NCBI GenBank assembly: GCA_027624955.1
Contig: JAQBTG010000002.1
Coordinates: forward strand, 24,694-88,693
Direction: 5' to 3'
Source of the DNA: Pseudomonadota bacterium
GTDB taxonomy: Bacteria > Pseudomonadota > Alphaproteobacteria > UBA828
Length of the DNA stretch: 64,000 nt
Shown here: one piece after another, positions 2,974 to 58,420 of the stretch
Position numbering within the stretch: the first letter of the stretch is position 1
How the letters are laid out: each line of letters opens with the position of its first letter
Position numbers and translations under genes: made by a program
Notes under the pieces: model-generated
What the model was told of the DNA's origin: nothing
What the model saw: only the letters and a program-made list of their open reading frames with translations
Database searches by the model: none

Positions 2974-5064
2974 CTACGCCTTGCTCTCGGTTTCTGTTTC
3001 CAACATATAATTCCGCCGCGCCGTCACCCGTGCGGTGGCGCCGGGATAGACGACGATGGTGGTGGTTGGCTCCTCAATAATTGCCGGGCCAGCGATCACA
3101 GCGCCGGGGCTGAGGTCCGTGCCGACATAGACCGGCGCGTCGAGGGCGTCGTCGCCGCCGAAATAGGTTTTCGAAACACGCCTGGCTTCGGGCGCCTTTA
3201 ATTCGCCCGCCGCTTCTTCCGGCAAATTCGGCTTGTCGAGGATCGCGGTCAGCCGGCCCTTCCAATTGACGCATTCGATGGCGCCGCCTTCTTCTTTCAT
3301 GGCGTAGCGGCGGAAATGCACATCGTGGAACGCCTGCACCAAAACCTCTACATCGGCGGCGCTTTTGACCGTCTCCAGCGGCATGGCGAATTCCATTTCC
3401 CACTGTTGATTGATGTAGCGCGCCTCGACAAAATATTCGCTTTTGAACTGGTTGATGCCGCGCTCGCGCAATTCTTCGCTGAAGGCCTCGATCTGCTGGG
3501 TGATGCCGCCGAGCGCGCGATCGACGCCGGCGAAATCGAAATTTCCCGAATGGGCGTATTGGCTGGCGCTGAATTCGGCGACGATGTTGGAATATTGCCC
3601 ACCGCAGGCGCTAAGCGCCCCAGCGGTGCGCGGCACCAGCACTTTGGCGCAGCCGAGTGCCTTGGCGATGGGCAGAATATTGAGACCGGCAGCGCCGCCG
3701 CCGGCGACGAGAATGCTCTCCGCCGGGTTAACACCGTCCTGCACGGTGATTTCCTGAATCGCCTTGATCATCTGCTCACCGGCGATGGTGATGATGGCAA
3801 AGGCCGCCTGCTCAACGCTCAACTTGCTCTGATCGGCAATTGCCGAAACAGCCTTGCGCGCCGCCGCCACATCGAGCGCCATGCGCCCGCCGAGAAAGAA
3901 ATGCGGATCGATATAGCCGAGCACCACGGCGGCATCGGTGACCGTCGCTTCGGTGCCGCCGCGGCCGTAACAGGCCGGGCCGGGCATCGCGCCGGCACTC
4001 TTGGGGCCGACCCGGAGCAGGCCGCCTGAATCGATCCAGGCGATGGAGCCGCCGCCGGCGCCGACGCTCCGCACATCGACCGAGGAGAGGCCGAGATTGT
4101 GGCCGATCCATTCGCCGAGCAACCACGTCTCGCGGGTGAATTTGATTTGCCCGGCGCGCACCATGCTGACGTCGAACGTCGTGCCGCCGGTGTCGACGAT
4201 GATGACGTCGTTGCCTTCGCCTTCCGCCTCGGCATAAGCGATGCCCGCCAGGGGCGCCATGGCCGGCCCCGATTTAACCGTGTAGATCGGCTTCTCAACC
4301 ACATCTTTGACATGCATAACGCCGCCCGAGCACGCGCTCACCAGGATTTCGCCCTGATAGTTGGCCGCGCGCAGATCGCTCTCAAAGCCAGAAAGATGGT
4401 GCTGCATGAGCGGCTTTAGCGAGGCATCGATGGCGGTGGAGGAGGTGCGCGGATATTCGCGGATGATCGGATTGAGCTGATGCGACAGCGTGTAGGGAAT
4501 GCCCGGCAGGATCTCTGCAATCAATTCGCCAAGGCGCTTTTCATGCGCCGAATTGACGATCGACCAAAGCAGGCTCACCGCGACGGCCTCGATATTCATG
4601 TTCGCCAGGCCGGCGATGGTGGCGCGCGCCGCCGCTTCGTCGAGCGCTGTCTCGACGCCGCCTTCGGCATTGATGCGCTCGGGAATTTCGAAGGTGAGGC
4701 GGCGCGGCACGTAGGGCGGTGGAAACTCAATCACAATATTGAGCGGCTCGCGCTTGCCGCCTTGGCGGTACAGCAGAATGTCGGGGAAGCCTTCGGTCAC
4801 GAGGAGGGCGGTCTTGGCGGTCTTTTTTTCCACGATGGAATTGGTCGAGCGCGTGGTGCCGTATATCAAAACTTCAGTCTCGCCCAGTAGAGTCACCACC
4901 GGAACACCGATGATTTCCGCCGCATTGGTCAACGCGGCGGAAAAGCCGTCATAGCTGCGTTCGGGTGTGGTCAGCGCCTTGCCGACCACCAAATGCCCTT
5001 GTGCATCTGCAACGACGACATCGGTGAAGGTGCCGCCAGTATCGACGGCAATGCGATAGCCCAT
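2974..5064 (-). CDS. Hydantoinase A / oxoprolinase family protein (HyuA-like). The start is probably the internal Met giving MGYRIAVDTGGTFTD (5064); the longest ORF extends to 5106.
   Basis: The N-terminal DxGGTFTD ATPase motif is present (RIAVDTGGTFTDVVV). Length is about 697 aa, and it forms a pair with the downstream HyuB-like gene. Confidence 0.85.
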   Translation of the reverse strand: MGYRIAVDTGGTFTDVVVADAQGHLVVGKALTTPERSYDGFSAALTNAAEIIGVPVVTLLGETEVLIYGTTRSTNSIVEKKTAKTALLVTEGFPDILLYRQGGKREPLNIVIEFPPPYVPRRLTFEIPERINAEGGVETALDEAAARATIAGLANMNIEAVAVSLLWSIVNSAHEKRLGELIAEILPGIPYTLSHQLNPIIREYPRTSSTAIDASLKPLMQHHLSGFESDLRAANYQGEILVSACSGGVMHVKDVVEKPIYTVKSGPAMAPLAGIAYAEAEGEGNDVIIVDTGGTTFDVSMVRAGQIKFTRETWLLGEWIGHNLGLSSVDVRSVGAGGGSIAWIDSGGLLRVGPKSAGAMPGPACYGRGGTEATVTDAAVVLGYIDPHFFLGGRMALDVAAARKAVSAIADQSKLSVEQAAFAIITIAGEQMIKAIQEITVQDGVNPAESILVAGGGAAGLNILPIAKALGCAKVLVPRTAGALSACGGQYSNIVAEFSASQYAHSGNFDFAGVDRALGGITQQIEAFSEELRERGINQFKSEYFVEARYINQQWEMEFAMPLETVKSAADVEVLVQAFHDVHFRRYAMKEEGGAIECVNWKGRLTAILDKPNLPEEAAGELKAPEARRVSKTYFGGDDALDAPVYVGTDLSPGAVIAGPAIIEEPTTTIVVYPGATARVTARRNYMLETETESKA

Positions 5065-53797: not shown

Positions 53798-54274
53798 ATG
53801 GATGGAATGACAAGCGACGCGAAGAACATTGTTCCGCCGCCGCAGCGGCAGCCGGTCAATTTTTTCAGATTTTCCGGACGCGTTGCCATGGCGTTGGCCC
53901 TGGCATTTACAATAGTTTTTGGCCCCTCCCAAATTAGCGCGGCCACGCCGGATCTGAATAATGCGGCGGGCCAGAAGCAACCTCATCACGACGAGCAGGC
54001 GAACGCCGGTCATCATTCAATTGGCCCGGCGGCAAGCGGGCATCACACAGCGGCGATTAAGGTCTATTGCAACACGGCGACGCCTGGCCATGGCGACCAT
54101 GCGCAGCATGGCGACGGTATGTGCGAAGGCTACCGCGTTATGTCTTCTGCCCTGACATCCGCCGAACGCGAATTTGCGCGGTATTACATTCGCCTCAGTG
54201 CGAAAACGGCGCCTGATAGCGCCCCGGCCGGCCACTCACCCGAGCGCCTCAAAGAACCTCCCCGAACCGTCTAA
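53798..54274 (+). CDS. His-rich hypothetical exported protein. The start is uncertain; an internal Met at about 53888 begins a hydrophobic signal/TM segment.
   Basis: The segment MALALAFTIVFGPSQISAATP is followed by a run of His residues (PHHDEQANAGHHSIGPAASGHHTAA...HGDHAQHGDGMCEGY). It lies immediately upstream of a multicopper oxidase gene. Confidence 0.4.
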   Translation: MDGMTSDAKNIVPPPQRQPVNFFRFSGRVAMALALAFTIVFGPSQISAATPDLNNAAGQKQPHHDEQANAGHHSIGPAASGHHTAAIKVYCNTATPGHGDHAQHGDGMCEGYRVMSSALTSAEREFARYYIRLSAKTAPDSAPAGHSPERLKEPPRTV

Positions 54275-54382
54275 GGCGGGTATCCCCGCTTCATTTTGAA
54301 TGAAGGGCTTCCGTAGCGAAGCTTGAAATGGCCTGCCGTGGTTCTCCCATCCGCGGCGGCTGGGACGGATCATGTGTGAGGA

Positions 54383-55708
54383 GTGATCATGAGCGAGAAA
54401 AGAGAATTGCCACAATCGGCGGCACAGACCGCCGAAGAAACCACCGAAGAAAGCGCCAAAAAATCTAGGCCGACCACATCGTCTTCTAGTACCGACACGC
54501 CGCCTTCGGGACCGACGCGGCGCGCCGTGCTGCGCTCGGCGGCGTTGGCGGCCACCGGCGGCGCGCTGTTGGGCGCGGCGGGCAAAGCAGGGGCCAGCGA
54601 ATATCAGGCAGCCCAGGGCTCCATGATGTTTATGAAAGGGCACAACATGATTGGTGCGCGCACCAATCCGCCGGGCGCGCCGGGCGACCATGAAGTGCCC
54701 TACCGCAGTTTCGATATCAGCTTTGATCTGATGGAGCATGAATTGGTGCCGGGCGTGAGCCTGCCGGTATTCGCTTTCAATAAGCAGGTGCCGGGGCCGC
54801 TCTTCCGCGTGCAAGAGAATGATTGGGTCAAGATCAGCGCCACCAACAATACGGAAGAGATGCACACCATCCATTGGCATGGTCTCGACGTGATTTACAC
54901 CATGGACGGCGTACCGATGGTGACGCAGGACCCGATCCACCCGGGCGAGACGTTCGTTTATCGCTTTCAGGCGCGCCCGGCAGGGACGCGGTTCTATCAC
55001 TGCCACTGGAGCACGCCGCTGCATATGATGTCGGCCCTGCACGGTGCCTTCATCATCGACCAGGCAGATGATCCGGTGCGCCAAGCCTTCCCCTATACGC
55101 GCGACTACACGCTGATGCTTGAAGCGTTCGACGTGAATTGGACACGCAAGCACATCAATGAAGTTTTGGCCGGCATGAAGCGGGTCAACAAGCTCATGGC
55201 GATGGGCAAGCTGGACCCGATCACGCACGGCTTCTTTCGCGATTACGATGAATTTAAGGCCGCCGTCGCGGACGGTTGGACACCGCCCTATGTGCGCGGC
55301 GCGGCGGAGCGCAGCACGCCGGAGCCCGATTTCTTCGCGATCAACGGCAAATGTTATCCGGCCACCGAAAAACTCAAAATCAAGCAAGGCGAATATATCC
55401 GCATCCGCCTGATCAATGGCGGCTTCCTGTCACATCATATGCATTTGCACGGTCATAATTTTTGGCAGGTGGCGGAGGACGGCAACCCGCTGCCCCAGCC
55501 AATTCGCATGAACACCGTATCGCTGTTTCCCGGAAAGACGGCAGACATCATCGTTTACGGCGACAATCCTGGGTTTTGGACTTTCCACGACCACGATGTC
55601 CGGCGGGTGATGAATAACGGCATCTATCCGGGCGGCATGCTCACGATGCTTGAATATGAAGATATGGGCGACGTGCCCTACGTCCCCTCCATCGCCATCA
55701 ACGAATAA
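54383..55708 (+). CDS. Tat-exported multicopper oxidase, two-domain type (laccase-like).
   Basis: The Tat motif TRRAVLRSAALAATGG and the Cu-binding motifs HWHG, HCHWSTPLHMM, HHMHLHGH and HDHD are present. The length of 441 aa fits two cupredoxin domains rather than a 3-domain CopA or PcoA. Confidence 0.75.
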   Translation: MIMSEKRELPQSAAQTAEETTEESAKKSRPTTSSSSTDTPPSGPTRRAVLRSAALAATGGALLGAAGKAGASEYQAAQGSMMFMKGHNMIGARTNPPGAPGDHEVPYRSFDISFDLMEHELVPGVSLPVFAFNKQVPGPLFRVQENDWVKISATNNTEEMHTIHWHGLDVIYTMDGVPMVTQDPIHPGETFVYRFQARPAGTRFYHCHWSTPLHMMSALHGAFIIDQADDPVRQAFPYTRDYTLMLEAFDVNWTRKHINEVLAGMKRVNKLMAMGKLDPITHGFFRDYDEFKAAVADGWTPPYVRGAAERSTPEPDFFAINGKCYPATEKLKIKQGEYIRIRLINGGFLSHHMHLHGHNFWQVAEDGNPLPQPIRMNTVSLFPGKTADIIVYGDNPGFWTFHDHDVRRVMNNGIYPGGMLTMLEYEDMGDVPYVPSIAINE

Positions 55709-55726
55709 CCGGAAAGGAACTGACCG

Positions 55727-56971
55727 ATGAAAAACAAACTTATCTCTCTCGCCGCCGGTTGTTCAGCCGCCCTCTTTGCCGCCGGCGCTATGGCTCTGGA
55801 GATCGATCCAAACGTGCCGCCGGAGATCAGTCTCGGCGGGCGTCTTGTTGCCACGGCCAACTTCTCGGATACGGAACAAGCGGTTGGCAGCAATAAGACC
55901 GATGCGGCGCTCGATATCGCCGATTCAAGCATTCTCATCAGCGCCAGCAAATATTTGTTCAACGCCGGTGATTACGGTTACGCGGTGTTTGGCCTCACAA
56001 TTCCGGAGGACGATTCTGACCTGCCGGATGAGATATTCGTGCACCAGGCGGCGGTCGGCATGGGCAGTCAAGATTACGATCTAGTCCTTGGCCGCACGCG
56101 ACTGCCAAATACCTTGGTTTCGTTTCCGACCGTGCGCGACGACGATCTTCTCGCTTTCACCCATGTCGGCAACGCCGGCGCTAACGTAGAGGCGGAGGAA
56201 GATACAATTTTTGGCGGTGTCCTCGGCGGCACGCGGTATCTATGGAAGCAATTCCAGGCGCAAGCCTTCGCCACGGCGCGGGCCGAAACCGACCTTACCA
56301 ATCTCACAAATAGTGACCGAACTGCGCGTTCTAATTTAAACGGCGCGGCGTTTGGCTTTGCCTATGAAATTCCCGAAGAGATCAAGTTTGACCGCGGCAT
56401 CCGCTACGCTGCTGTCGGGCTCGATTGGCAGCGCGTTGATGAGTTGGCGGGCGGCGATGATGACGACGTCGCGGCCGTTCTGGCCGGCCTAAGTTACAAC
56501 CTCAGCGACGACCCTGAGGCAAGCTGGGCATTGGATTTTCAGGGCATCTACAATTTCGGCGCCGGGGTCGCCAATCTCAATTCCGACGTGGCGCGGGCGC
56601 GCGGCGAGCAATATGCCCTGGTCAGCGCGCTCCGCTACACCGCCCGCCCGCAATTGCAAACCGATTGGCAAGCGGCCATCACGGTGGCGTGGAAGGATTA
56701 TGCGGATTTTGACGACGCCTCTTCTTTTGCAATAGTGCCGAGTATCGCCTGGCGATTGGGCAGTGGTGTCGAGGTGCTCGGCCAATATCGATTTCTCAAC
56801 AATGGCGCCACCTTGGGCGCTGCGGAGAATCAGGACCGTAGCCACACACTCTTTCTCGGCCTGTCCTTCGCTTTGGATACGACCTTCAACGAATCTGTCG
56901 GTGCGCGCGGCTCGATTCTCAGCCTAGAGCACAACATGCTCAATCCCGGCCCCGCCGGGCTCGGCCATTGA
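55727..56971 (+). CDS. Outer-membrane beta-barrel (porin-like) protein with a signal peptide.
   Basis: The signal peptide is MKNKLISLAAGCSAALFAAGAMA. Alternating amphipathic beta-strand patterns with Tyr/Phe/Trp-rich strands follow. No family was recognised. Confidence 0.5.
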   Translation: MKNKLISLAAGCSAALFAAGAMALEIDPNVPPEISLGGRLVATANFSDTEQAVGSNKTDAALDIADSSILISASKYLFNAGDYGYAVFGLTIPEDDSDLPDEIFVHQAAVGMGSQDYDLVLGRTRLPNTLVSFPTVRDDDLLAFTHVGNAGANVEAEEDTIFGGVLGGTRYLWKQFQAQAFATARAETDLTNLTNSDRTARSNLNGAAFGFAYEIPEEIKFDRGIRYAAVGLDWQRVDELAGGDDDDVAAVLAGLSYNLSDDPEASWALDFQGIYNFGAGVANLNSDVARARGEQYALVSALRYTARPQLQTDWQAAITVAWKDYADFDDASSFAIVPSIAWRLGSGVEVLGQYRFLNNGATLGAAENQDRSHTLFLGLSFALDTTFNESVGARGSILSLEHNMLNPGPAGLGH

Positions 56972-56991
56972 GAGACGGAGGAAGGAAGAGA

Positions 56992-57420
56992 ATGATGCAA
57001 ATCAAAAGTAAGACGCTTCCACTCATCGCGGCGGTGGCCGCTTTCACCACTTCCGTCGCTGTGGTCACTCCCGCTATGGCGCAAGAGTCCGGCAGCCATG
57101 AGGGGCACGATATGTCTGCCATGATGGCTGTGGGCGAAGCCGGTGCCTGGTCCTATACAGGGCGGGAAAATCCACAAATGCAGATGCACGGGCGCTGGGA
57201 AACGGTGCCGCTAAAGGGGCGAGCTAGCGCCGCGGTTTCCGCCGCCGCCATGACGCACCAGGAGCGCTGCGCCGCGCTGATGGCGGCGGAGGATTTGATG
57301 CAGGATCACGCGACCCTCGCGGCTTGTACGGGGATAAACCCATCCACCCCGATGGAACAACAACCGCCGCCGAGCCAACATGATGACATGGACCATGGCG
57401 ACGGCGGACAAAGTAACTAA
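56992..57420 (+). CDS. Met/His-rich periplasmic hypothetical protein and possible copper ligand.
   Basis: The signal peptide MMQIKSKTLPLIAAVAAFTTSVAVVTPAMA is followed by SGSHEGHDMSAMMAVGE...MQMHG...HDDMDHGDGG. The gene sits between the porin-like and cupredoxin genes. Confidence 0.45.
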   Translation: MMQIKSKTLPLIAAVAAFTTSVAVVTPAMAQESGSHEGHDMSAMMAVGEAGAWSYTGRENPQMQMHGRWETVPLKGRASAAVSAAAMTHQERCAALMAAEDLMQDHATLAACTGINPSTPMEQQPPPSQHDDMDHGDGGQSN

Positions 57421-57444
57421 CTCTAACTCCAACAGAGAAGGCAG

Positions 57445-58278
57445 ATGATGAAACACAGAAAACTGGCCGCCACCACGGTGCTGGCTCTAATGATCGGCGC
57501 GGGAATTTCCACAGCAGCCATGGCCGATACGGCGGTCATCAAAATGAAATTCGATGAAGACAGCGGCGATCTTTATTTTGAGCCGGCCAAGGTCACTATC
57601 AATCCCGGCGATACCGTGGTCTGGCTGCAAGATGATGTCGACAACGAGCACAACGTGGCTGCCTATCCCAACCTCATTCCGGAAGGCGTGCAGCCCTTTG
57701 AAAGTCAGATGATGACGCGGGTAGGCGAAAGCTGGAGCATGACCTTCGACAAGGTAGGCAGCTATTTCTATCACTGCCATCCGCATGAGGCGGCGGGCAT
57801 GAAAGGGCTGATCGTGGTCGGTCGCGAATCTCTGCCGGAGGAATTCCGAAAAGCCAGAGCGGGTGATATGTCGCATGACCATGGCGACGGCGATATGGAC
57901 GACATGAAGCATGGCGATAAGGACGGCATGAAGCATGGCGACAAGGACGGCATGAAGCATGGTGACATGGACGACATGAAGCCTGGCGATAAGGACGGCA
58001 TGAAGCATGGTGACATGGACGGCATGAAGCATGACGACATGGACGGCATGAAGCATGACGACATGGACGGCATGAAGCATGGTGACATGGACGGCATGAA
58101 GCATGACGATAAGGACGGCATGAAGCATGACGACATGGACGGCATGAAGCATGACGACATGGACGGCATGAAGCACGGCGACGATGATGATCATCACCAA
58201 GATGGTGACAAAAAGGAGAACAAGATTATGGAGGATGGGCATGGCCACGATAATGACCATGGCGATCACCACGATTAG
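57445..58278 (+). CDS. Exported type-1 copper (cupredoxin: plastocyanin/pseudoazurin/amicyanin-like) protein with a C-terminal tail of 12 tandem 8-aa DGMKH(G/D)D(M/K) repeats.
   Basis: A signal peptide is present. The cupredoxin ligand pattern His...Cys-x2-His-x4-Met appears in FYHCHPHEAAGMKGLIVV. Residues from about 148 to 250 are a Met/His/Asp repeat array. Confidence 0.75.
   Translation: MMKHRKLAATTVLALMIGAGISTAAMADTAVIKMKFDEDSGDLYFEPAKVTINPGDTVVWLQDDVDNEHNVAAYPNLIPEGVQPFESQMMTRVGESWSMTFDKVGSYFYHCHPHEAAGMKGLIVVGRESLPEEFRKARAGDMSHDHGDGDMDDMKHGDKDGMKHGDKDGMKHGDMDDMKPGDKDGMKHGDMDGMKHDDMDGMKHDDMDGMKHGDMDGMKHDDKDGMKHDDMDGMKHDDMDGMKHGDDDDHHQDGDKKENKIMEDGHGHDNDHGDHHD
57886..58192 (+). repeat. 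24-bp tandem repeat array (about 12 units of gacggcatgaagcatgRcgaYaWg) encoding the DGMKHxDx repeats.
   Basis: Direct inspection shows highly regular 24-nt periodicity. The spurious minus-strand ORFs 57487-58296 and 57771-58169 are its reverse-frame translations (MLHAV / MPSMSSCF repeats). Confidence 0.9.
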
Positions 58279-58420
58279 GGCGCGCCGGACGGTCAAGGGC
58301 GCCTTCGGCTAGGCGCTCCGCATTAGAGAAGATAACTGTGAACGGCAATTTTTTTGACAGCGAGGTGGCGGAGCTAATCGCTCTATGCCCCGCACCGCCA
58401 GCGGCCTTGATTGATCGGCT

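Follow-up and report, generated by a model that had tools for sequence, protein, structure and literature searches.

Segments rich in methionine and histidine recur in several described copper proteins. CopI from Rubrivivax gelatinosus is a periplasmic copper-tolerance cupredoxin, for which the published model proposes that a flexible His/Met segment takes up Cu(I) before its oxidation at the cupredoxin centre (PMC13308877, PMC4600104); its internal His/Met-rich segment (residues 83-95) is conserved and has been reported as essential for resistance, and its N-terminal His-rich Cu(II) site varies among homologues (PMC13308877). In CopA/PcoA and CopB, from Pseudomonas and from E. coli plasmids, the M-x-x-M-x-H-x-x-M spacing (MXXMXHXXM, the “MDH” motif), implicated in copper binding, is repeated in tandem with a period of 8 residues and in variable copy number, being found 5-14 times in the CopA paralogues of Pseudomonas putida (PMC3056050, PMC12428095). 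CueO from E. coli and Hafnia alvei carries a flexible Met-rich region beside its type-1 site, which is dispensable for free Cu(I) and needed for Cu(I) held by strong chelators, a larger domain performing better (PMC11494321, PMC12041951). Pseudomonas putida CinA is a copper-inducible “methionine-rich azurin-like protein”, according to a title cited in two papers (PMC4600104, PMC3056050), and AccA, of the PCuAC group, joins a cupredoxin-like fold to a disordered C-terminal His/Met extension, with picomolar affinity for Cu(II) and near-picomolar affinity for Cu(I) (PMC13006917). In this work we analyse a gene found in a 64-kb stretch of DNA of an uncultured marine alphaproteobacterium (64,000 nucleotides, referred to below as “the window”), which lies within a 131-kb metagenome scaffold (ENA ERZ23495043, MEHR18-1_SAMN03444961 scaffold_176). 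It encodes a cupredoxin whose C-terminus is extended by twelve tandem octapeptides rich in Met, His and Asp. By its sequence, and by analogy with the above-mentioned systems, we consider it on balance probable that this tail would act as a periplasmic copper-capture array feeding the redox-active cupredoxin and a neighbouring oxidase, with a role in copper capture and homeostasis. The gene is organized as follows:

57445-58278, plus strand: cupredoxin gene with repeat tail, 277 amino acids (open reading frame listing, Pfam, AlphaFold2 model).
57445-57525, plus strand: predicted Sec signal peptide, residues 1-27, cut after AMA (sequence features).
57526-57852, plus strand: cupredoxin domain, residues 28-136 (PF00127, ligand alignment, AlphaFold2, Foldseek).
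57649-57651, 57775-57777, 57784-57786 and 57799-57801, plus strand: codons of the type-1 ligands H69, C111, H114 and M119, respectively.
57862-57888, plus strand: conserved motif adjoining the domain, G-D-M-S-H-D-H-G-D, residues 140-148 (family alignment).
57889-58176, plus strand: twelve in-frame 24-bp units, (G/D)D(M/K)D(G/D)MK(H/P) (Tandem Repeats Finder, codon table).
58177-58275, plus strand: C-terminal Asp/His/Lys segment (GDDDDHHQDGDKKENKIMEDGHGHDNDHGDHHD), followed by the stop codon at 58276-58278 (sequence).

The 277-residue frame is complete, and its ends agree exactly with the coordinates first assigned to it; some gene calls start one codon downstream and give a protein of 276 residues (P0001). 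The original prediction, made by a model from the DNA letters and their translations, had ascribed to this protein a signal peptide and a complete type-1 copper site, and both are found. The leader, read by eye (MMKHRKLAATTVLALMIGAGISTAAMA, cut before DTAV), shows the n-region, h-region and AxA of a Sec-type signal (KHRK, a hydrophobic core and AMA followed by D). PF00127 covers residues 33-125 (E 1.6e-19; 70.6 bits against a cut-off of 21.2), and in the alignment with Phormidium plastocyanin 3bqv residues H69, C111, H114 and M119 fall on all four type-1 ligands, with a C-x2-H-x4-M spacing and 42 residues from His to Cys. These ligands are invariant in 37 of 37 aligned family members, as is the HCHPHE stretch that surrounds the Cys (H110-C111-H112-P113-H114-E115; 57772-57789), which is also present in relatives fused to CusF. 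Structure prediction, one of the checks proposed at the outset, gives a confident cupredoxin and a disordered tail: the AlphaFold2 model, built on an alignment of 37 homologues, has a predicted local distance difference test score (pLDDT) below 50 over residues 1-23, its first strand beginning at residue 29, a mean of at least 96 in every 10-residue block from 31 to 130, a mean of 53 for residues 141-150, and values mostly below 50 for residues 147-277. The model is a Greek-key beta-sandwich, for which Foldseek returns pseudoazurin 3paz (E 2e-11) and plastocyanin 3bqv at 36-39% identity, and the target-normalised template modelling scores range from 0.65 to 0.89 over the 50 Foldseek matches listed. 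The protein stays under the equivalog cut-offs of both pseudoazurin (TIGR02375, 62.2 bits vs. 109.85) and plastocyanin (TIGR02656, 70.2 bits vs. 87.85). Within the mature domain (residues 28-136), comparison of the plus frame with a second lineage (L026) gives 16 synonymous and 6 non-synonymous codon differences; two minus-strand open reading frames (57487-58296 and 57771-58169) were discarded as mirror products of the repeat, not genes. As for HCHPHE, two relatives (L025, L022) show weak Cu-oxidase_3 matches over this stretch (E ~0.004), and a Cys ligand with His on both sides is the pattern that, in multicopper oxidases and nitrite reductase, connects the type-1 copper with the adjoining copper site.

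The tail starts at residue 137 and comprises 141 residues, among which Asp (32%), Gly (17%), Met (16%), His (14%) and Lys (13.5%) together make up 92%. In the segment that links it to the domain, H144 is invariant and M142 and H146 are kept in at least 90% of the 37 sequences. The twelve-unit array that had been proposed is present, with twelve in-frame units at 57889-58176 in the register D(G/D)MK(H/P)(G/D)D(M/K), and it is the sole array that Tandem Repeats Finder detects in the region (57889-58182, period 24, 12.2 copies, 90% matches, 0% indels, score 448). Calling the DNA repeat “near-perfect” was fair as far as the matches and the lack of indels go, and slightly generous in other respects: the twelve units fall into eight distinct DNA types (in the order ABCDBEFFEGFH) that diverge at up to 4 of 24 bases, Lys replaces the second Met in four units, and Pro replaces His in one. 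In the register M-D-G-M-K-H-G-D-M the unit has exactly the MXXMXHXXM spacing; the tail contains four MxxMxHxxM, seven HxxMxxM and twelve MxH motifs, with a period of 8 residues. The protein ends in HGHDNDHGDHHD, the His/Asp-rich terminus that had been pointed out. A homology search with the tail alone gave just two matches, both from the same family, and it is uninformative on relatives elsewhere since composition filtering removes such sequences.

How far does this protein coincide with the systems described above? By the features compared, and judged against the published description, it is not CopI. The ligands of CopI are H70/C125/H130/M135, in a C-x4-H-x4-M arrangement with 55 residues from His to Cys (PMC4600104), in contrast to C-x2-H-x4-M and 42 residues here, and its extra segments are N-terminal and internal, short and non-repetitive, whereas the window protein carries a 141-residue C-terminal tandem array. 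Between its ligands no CopI-like His/Met-rich insert is present, only ESQMM, which aligns with SQLM of plastocyanin, and AlphaFold2 lists no low-confidence segment between residues 24 and 146; the predicted mature N-terminus, DTAVIKMKF, has no His, unlike the N-terminal His-rich site of CopI. In addition, copI comes after copA-copR, while the window gene is accompanied by genes for a two-domain oxidase and an outer-membrane-like protein. Among the PDB matches listed, none is a solved structure named CopI, and a search with a published CopI peptide gave no candidate. With CopA/PcoA and CopB the protein shares the motif spacing, the period, the tandem arrangement and the variable copy number, but those proteins carry the repeats as an insert within a three-domain oxidase or as part of an outer-membrane protein, and here they form the tail of a separate single-domain cupredoxin: the window protein has one PF00127 domain, the neighbouring two-domain oxidase lacks the motif, and the neighbouring outer-membrane-like protein has no PF05275 match. 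The filler residues between ligands also differ, being Asp/Gly/Lys in the window repeat and Ser/Gln/Gly in the Pseudomonas MDH repeats.

The Met-rich region of CueO, in turn, is built into the oxidase chain itself and lacks a regular tandem periodicity, whereas the window array is on a separate protein. CinA, as far as its cited title describes it, is azurin-like and encoded with a pre-Q0 reductase, in contrast to the plastocyanin/pseudoazurin-like window protein. The likeness to PCuAC/AccA is architectural only, as PF04314 is not among the Pfam matches of the window protein, the AccA tail peptide is a non-repetitive 16-mer, and the AccA core binds Cu(I) by HXnMX21/22HXM rather than by a type-1 site (PMC13006917). 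Finally, pseudoazurins and plastocyanins share the fold, the ligand set and the C-x2-H-x4-M loop length at 34-39% identity, the window protein adding HCHPHE, the GRESLPEEFR..GDMSHDH extension, the tail and a copper-cassette context. A related arrangement within its own clade is that of the cupredoxin-CusF fusions (L023, L025), which have HCHPH and a C-terminal Cu(I)-binding module, with a folded CusF instead of, or besides, disordered repeats; CusF_Ec (PF11604) is absent from the window protein.

These fusions belong to a wider family that speaks for the copper interpretation of the tail. A search of 5.8 billion proteins returned 56 homologues, labelled plastocyanin, pseudoazurin or hypothetical where a source name is given, some of them from “Rhodospirillaceae” or “Alphaproteobacteria” metagenome-assembled genomes (MAGs). 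The post-domain segment GRESLPEEFR..G(D/E)MSHDH is kept in every member together with HCHPHE and the four ligands, and after it all 56 bear a Met/His/acidic tail of 17-142 residues (median 68), that of the window protein being the longest seen in the family. Lys-rich spacers and terminal His clusters recur among the closer relatives. Units of 8 residues are found as 5.5 copies of HDDMKDMK in L003, 4.2 of HGDMDEMK in L008 and two copies in L011, other units have been expanded elsewhere (an 18-residue unit in P0031, HKGHEMHEGHEK-type repeats in P0084), and 61 distinct tails, with 245 units in phase, give the consensus H-G-D-M-D-x-M-K. Composition and ligand spacing are thus kept while the unit sequences differ, from which it follows that the tail has been rebuilt repeatedly by tandem duplication. 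In distant relatives (37-39% identity, HCHPHE kept; L023, L025) the position of the tail is occupied by CusF_Ec (E 1e-22 to 1e-25), so that a folded Cu(I)/Ag(I) domain and a repeat array are interchangeable there. P0125 and P0137 match the CusF signature motif by regular expression, which in P0137 comes after three MKGMDHxK (MDH-type) units, and the tail of P0152 consists of MDHSKMKM-type units. The genes of the CusF-fused relatives come after a three-domain oxidase and CopB (PF05275, E 1e-70), whose short Met-rich stretches contain, by motif counts in L023 and L025, no full MDH motif; a P1B ATPase lies near the L025 cupredoxin, and another, with HMA domains, near the cupredoxin of L018. In L004 (869-kb contig; 3483-4331) a PCuAC-like gene (PF04314) and a CsoR-like repressor (PF02583) are found just upstream of the cassette. 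More broadly, 30 of the 47 single-site cupredoxins among the top 150 representatives have HCHPH, most with a Met/His-rich N- or C-terminal extension. Together with the motif spacing, the CusF domains and copper loci of these relatives back the copper-binding tail that the original prediction had put forward, as far as comparison of sequences can.

The genomic context of the gene is equally conserved. It is the last of five close-set plus-strand genes (53798-58278), the other four being:

53798-54274, plus strand: cassette gene 1, His-rich protein of 158 residues with two Cys (open reading frame list).
54383-55708, plus strand: two-domain multicopper oxidase of 441 residues with a putative twin-arginine leader (TRRAVL) (Pfam Cu-oxidase_3 and Cu-oxidase_2).
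55727-56971, plus strand: outer-membrane-like protein of 414 residues with a signal peptide (open reading frame; position after the oxidase).
56968-57420, plus strand: secreted Met/His-rich protein of 142-150 residues with two Cys (open reading frame; the alternative start at 56992 gives 142 residues).

Of the five genes, that of the oxidase shows the highest conservation (70-91% identity across loci with full-length matches). Among solved structures, the two-domain oxidases 2zwn and 3g5w come nearest to the enzyme (E 1e-56). It has the type-1 motif HCH in domain 1 and HDH at the same place in domain 2, and we read it, from sequence, as a “type C” enzyme with a probable twin-arginine leader. 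It contains neither a MXXMXHXXM motif nor a Met-rich segment (Met 4.8%). The gene of the outer-membrane-like protein always comes directly after that of the oxidase, with 52-92% identity over 10 MAG loci; no Pfam match (PF05275/CopB included), NCBIfam match or PDB sequence match was obtained for its product, permissive scans included, and one homologue has a weak Porin_4 match on record. The Met/His-rich protein gave no Pfam, NCBIfam or PDB sequence match; in P0047 and P0053 it makes up the N-terminal part of a fusion with the cupredoxin, MDHDA/MGHDT repeats (15-bp DNA units) serving as linker, and apparently it is fused in P0104 and P0109 as well. For the gene-1 protein there was likewise no Pfam, NCBIfam or PDB sequence match, a permissive Pfam scan included; homologues occupy the same position in L003, L011 and L026, and the L023 gene at that position has a weak DUF2946 match (E 7.5e-4, under the curated cutoff). 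The order oxidase, outer-membrane-like protein, (Met/His-rich protein), cupredoxin is kept in at least 14 loci. A one-genome-per-species scan found 18 loci, all in MAGs, mostly of Alphaproteobacteria, with no isolate among them, and the only hosts in which the five-gene cassette turned up are uncultured Alphaproteobacteria from aquatic, mostly marine, habitats.

Taking these elements together, we propose that the tail would be a flexible, acidic, multivalent copper antenna of low affinity and fast exchange. Cu(I) would be held on Met/His triads (about seven HxxMxxM sites) and Cu(II) on His/Asp, so that the tail could raise the local copper concentration and strip copper off competing ligands; the type-1 centre and the two-domain oxidase encoded two genes upstream would then oxidise Cu(I) to Cu(II), the type-1 site, by analogy with CopI and CueO, taking electrons from bound Cu(I) and handing them to the oxidase. 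The cassette would in this way resemble a CueO/CopA-type cuprous oxidase with its Met-rich recruiting module placed on a separate small protein, and array length, changing in whole 24-bp units, would tune the number of sites. Several observations weigh against this proposal. All members of the clade come from uncultured organisms; the outer-membrane-like neighbour is not CopB by Pfam; and the window cassette has no adjoining copper sensor or exporter, motif scans of the rest of the 64-kb window having found no other copper-related gene. AccA gives a warning on tail function, because its His/Met tail binds Cu(II) at picomolar affinity and is yet dispensable in vivo (PMC13006917). The ligand positions are not strictly kept, given the four Lys-bearing units and the one without His; a tail with 32% Asp would equally suit hard cations (Ca, Mg, Mn, Fe); and AlphaFold docks neither the tail nor the MSHDH motif onto the domain.

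The main rival to the proposed capture and oxidation of copper is copper supply: the tail would scavenge scarce, complexed copper entering via the outer-membrane protein, and would metallate the cupredoxin and the oxidase in an AccA/PCuAC-like manner. The habitat suits this idea, since all carriers are aquatic, mostly marine, water-column MAGs, as does the absence of exporter and sensor from the window cassette and the PCuAC-like gene beside the cassette in L004; moreover, AccA is an example of a protein with such a fold and a His/Met tail that can act in metallation (PMC13006917), its fold being cupredoxin-like, and the ability of Met-rich domains to take Cu(I) from strong chelators aids acquisition as much as detoxification (PMC11494321, PMC12041951). 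Nevertheless, relatives are found in classical resistance contexts (CopA-type oxidase with CopB, P1B ATPase, CsoR-like repressor), a pure chaperone needs no complete type-1 redox site, and the window protein has no PF04314 match, so we regard supply as unlikely and infer that the physiological direction would be detoxification. Next comes a plain electron shuttle, which would serve the two-domain oxidase or another periplasmic enzyme acting on Fe(II), Mn(II) or phenolics, the tail being a general polyanionic appendage for docking or for binding cations. Among solved and annotated relatives the closest are indeed electron carriers (pseudoazurins and plastocyanins), the oxidase resembles 2zwn, deposited as a two-domain laccase, and the Asp content of the tail fits a polyanion. 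Against it stand the Met/His spacing of the tail, which is that of a copper motif, the exchange of the tail for the Cu(I)/Ag(I)-specific CusF domain, the copper-resistance neighbours of the relatives and the scores under both equivalog cut-offs, and we consider this explanation less likely still than supply.

A different kind of doubt concerns the array itself, namely that both the number of units, twelve, and its variation among assemblies stem from assembly artefacts or neutral slippage, and that tail length is without functional meaning. Every sequence compared for copy number comes from a metagenome assembly. The cluster at 90% identity includes proteins that are identical outside the array and measure 277/276, 269/268 and 244 residues. 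The 11-unit version (L033, the same 6.8 kb in NCBI and ENA as L030; BioSample SAMN03444948, same project as the window) shows 0 mismatches to the window and one 24-bp unit fewer (ABCDBEFFEGH), while the 8-unit version (L031, an unrelated assembly) has 3 mismatches in 3.6 kb and four units fewer (ABCDBEFH), at only 5.6x coverage. Both correspond exactly to the deletions predicted between the longest exact repeats of the array (46 bp at a shift of 24, and 63 bp at a shift of 96), so that slippage and assembler collapse would each give them. A 6-unit allele (L002; 1,057 bp, 2.7x) was discarded as a chimera or recombinant of two lineages, as it matches the L026 lineage at 99.8-100% identity over bases 1 to ~750 and the window lineage at 100% over the remainder, with the switch in the conserved end of the cupredoxin domain. 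On the other hand, no exact repeat exceeds 63 bp and hence reads of at least 100 bases could resolve the array; the 12-unit version (131-kb contig) and the 11-unit version (72-kb contig) come from two BioSamples of the same project; and a MAG protein at NCBI (MDA1354872.1) equals the window protein, its twelve units included, though possibly from the same sample. Four separate contigs carry one and the same P0003 gene, whose array is shorter (~5 units). P0019 (236 residues) and P0068 (260 residues), which belong to a second lineage, have identical domains and differ by three units; each form has been assembled more than once, and at least 11 contigs are on record for a member near-identical to P0019. 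Furthermore, even deeply diverged members keep the composition and the ligand spacing, though their unit sequences differ. We hold it unlikely that array length is an artefact or has no functional meaning. The variation in array length that had been predicted is borne out at the level of assemblies (12, 11 or 8 units across three samples, and three units in the second lineage), the copy number being either variable or mis-assembled. The accompanying suggestion of “contingency” variation does not hold: a unit of 24 bp is a multiple of three, its gain or loss preserves the frame and alters only the length of the tail, and a phase-variable switch is thereby ruled out in favour of in-frame tuning.

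With CopI, CinA, the Met-rich domains of CueO/CopA and the AccA tails as precedents, the combination of a cupredoxin with a Met/His copper-binding segment is already known, and describing it as “unusual” overstated the case. Three elements appear to be new: a regular array of 12 units at the C-terminal side of a pseudoazurin-like domain, a conserved cassette that combines a two-domain oxidase with a family-less outer-membrane-like protein, and the apparent within-population variation of array length. Recent work on CueO has it that Met-rich regions serve to pull Cu(I) from strong chelates, and that bigger regions do so better. The present family offers a single scaffold with tails of naturally graded length (17-142 residues, with otherwise identical genes of 8, 11 or 12 units) and has the recruiting module apart from the oxidase, which makes this recruitment idea directly testable in vitro. 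It also defines an uncharacterised five-gene copper cassette, formed by a two-domain oxidase, an outer-membrane-like protein and three Met/His-rich proteins. Copper in seawater is nearly all bound to organic ligands. A more speculative and doubtful extension of our proposal is a “split” cuprous oxidase, in which the array and a relay type-1 copper would sit on the mobile cupredoxin and the trinuclear centre on the two-domain oxidase, array length (8, 11 and 12 units in one population) being a fast-evolving, in-frame knob for stripping Cu(I) from seawater ligands, perhaps with a second copper site at HCH. H110-C111-H112, together with M142/H144/H146, might form such a surface copper site, coupled to the type-1 centre via Cys111.

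Some minor features of the cassette and its surroundings deserve mention. The genes flanking it in the window belong to ordinary metabolism, and Rfam and tRNA scans of the window found none. A GC-rich hairpin (54274-54291) followed by a T-rich run (AGGCGGGTATCCCCGCTT CATTTTGAAT) starts at the final base of the gene-1 stop codon, within the 108-bp gap that separates gene 1 from the oxidase gene; apart from it, a scan for promoters and terminators gave nothing convincing. The oxidase has a long Ser/Thr/Glu-rich stretch ahead of its twin-arginine motif. The outer-membrane-like protein contains many invariant Asp, Arg and Pro residues and has an unusual end, ...PGPAGLGH instead of an aromatic residue, and the Met/His-rich protein shows a conserved WSYxGRENP...GRWE motif. 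Downstream of the cassette in L004, a transposase and a type I-E CRISPR-Cas locus are found.

Genes beside related cupredoxins have tandem repeats of their own, with units of 15-39 bp in up to 13.8 copies:

L003, 8923-9028: tandem repeat in a neighbouring gene.
L017, 4728-4934 and 5035-5149: tandem repeats in neighbouring genes.
L018, 4960-5413: tandem repeat in a neighbouring gene.
L021, 6300-6353: tandem repeat in a neighbouring gene.

The consensus units of these repeats read as Met-rich peptides of MMGPG and GGMHK type, and repeat expansion thus seems a general habit of these copper loci. Lastly, P0083 (327 residues) has ~130 extra C-terminal residues after a short Met/His tail (IAFWRGFQDALFNHDFD...WKIKHVHWS), with the look of a globular domain.

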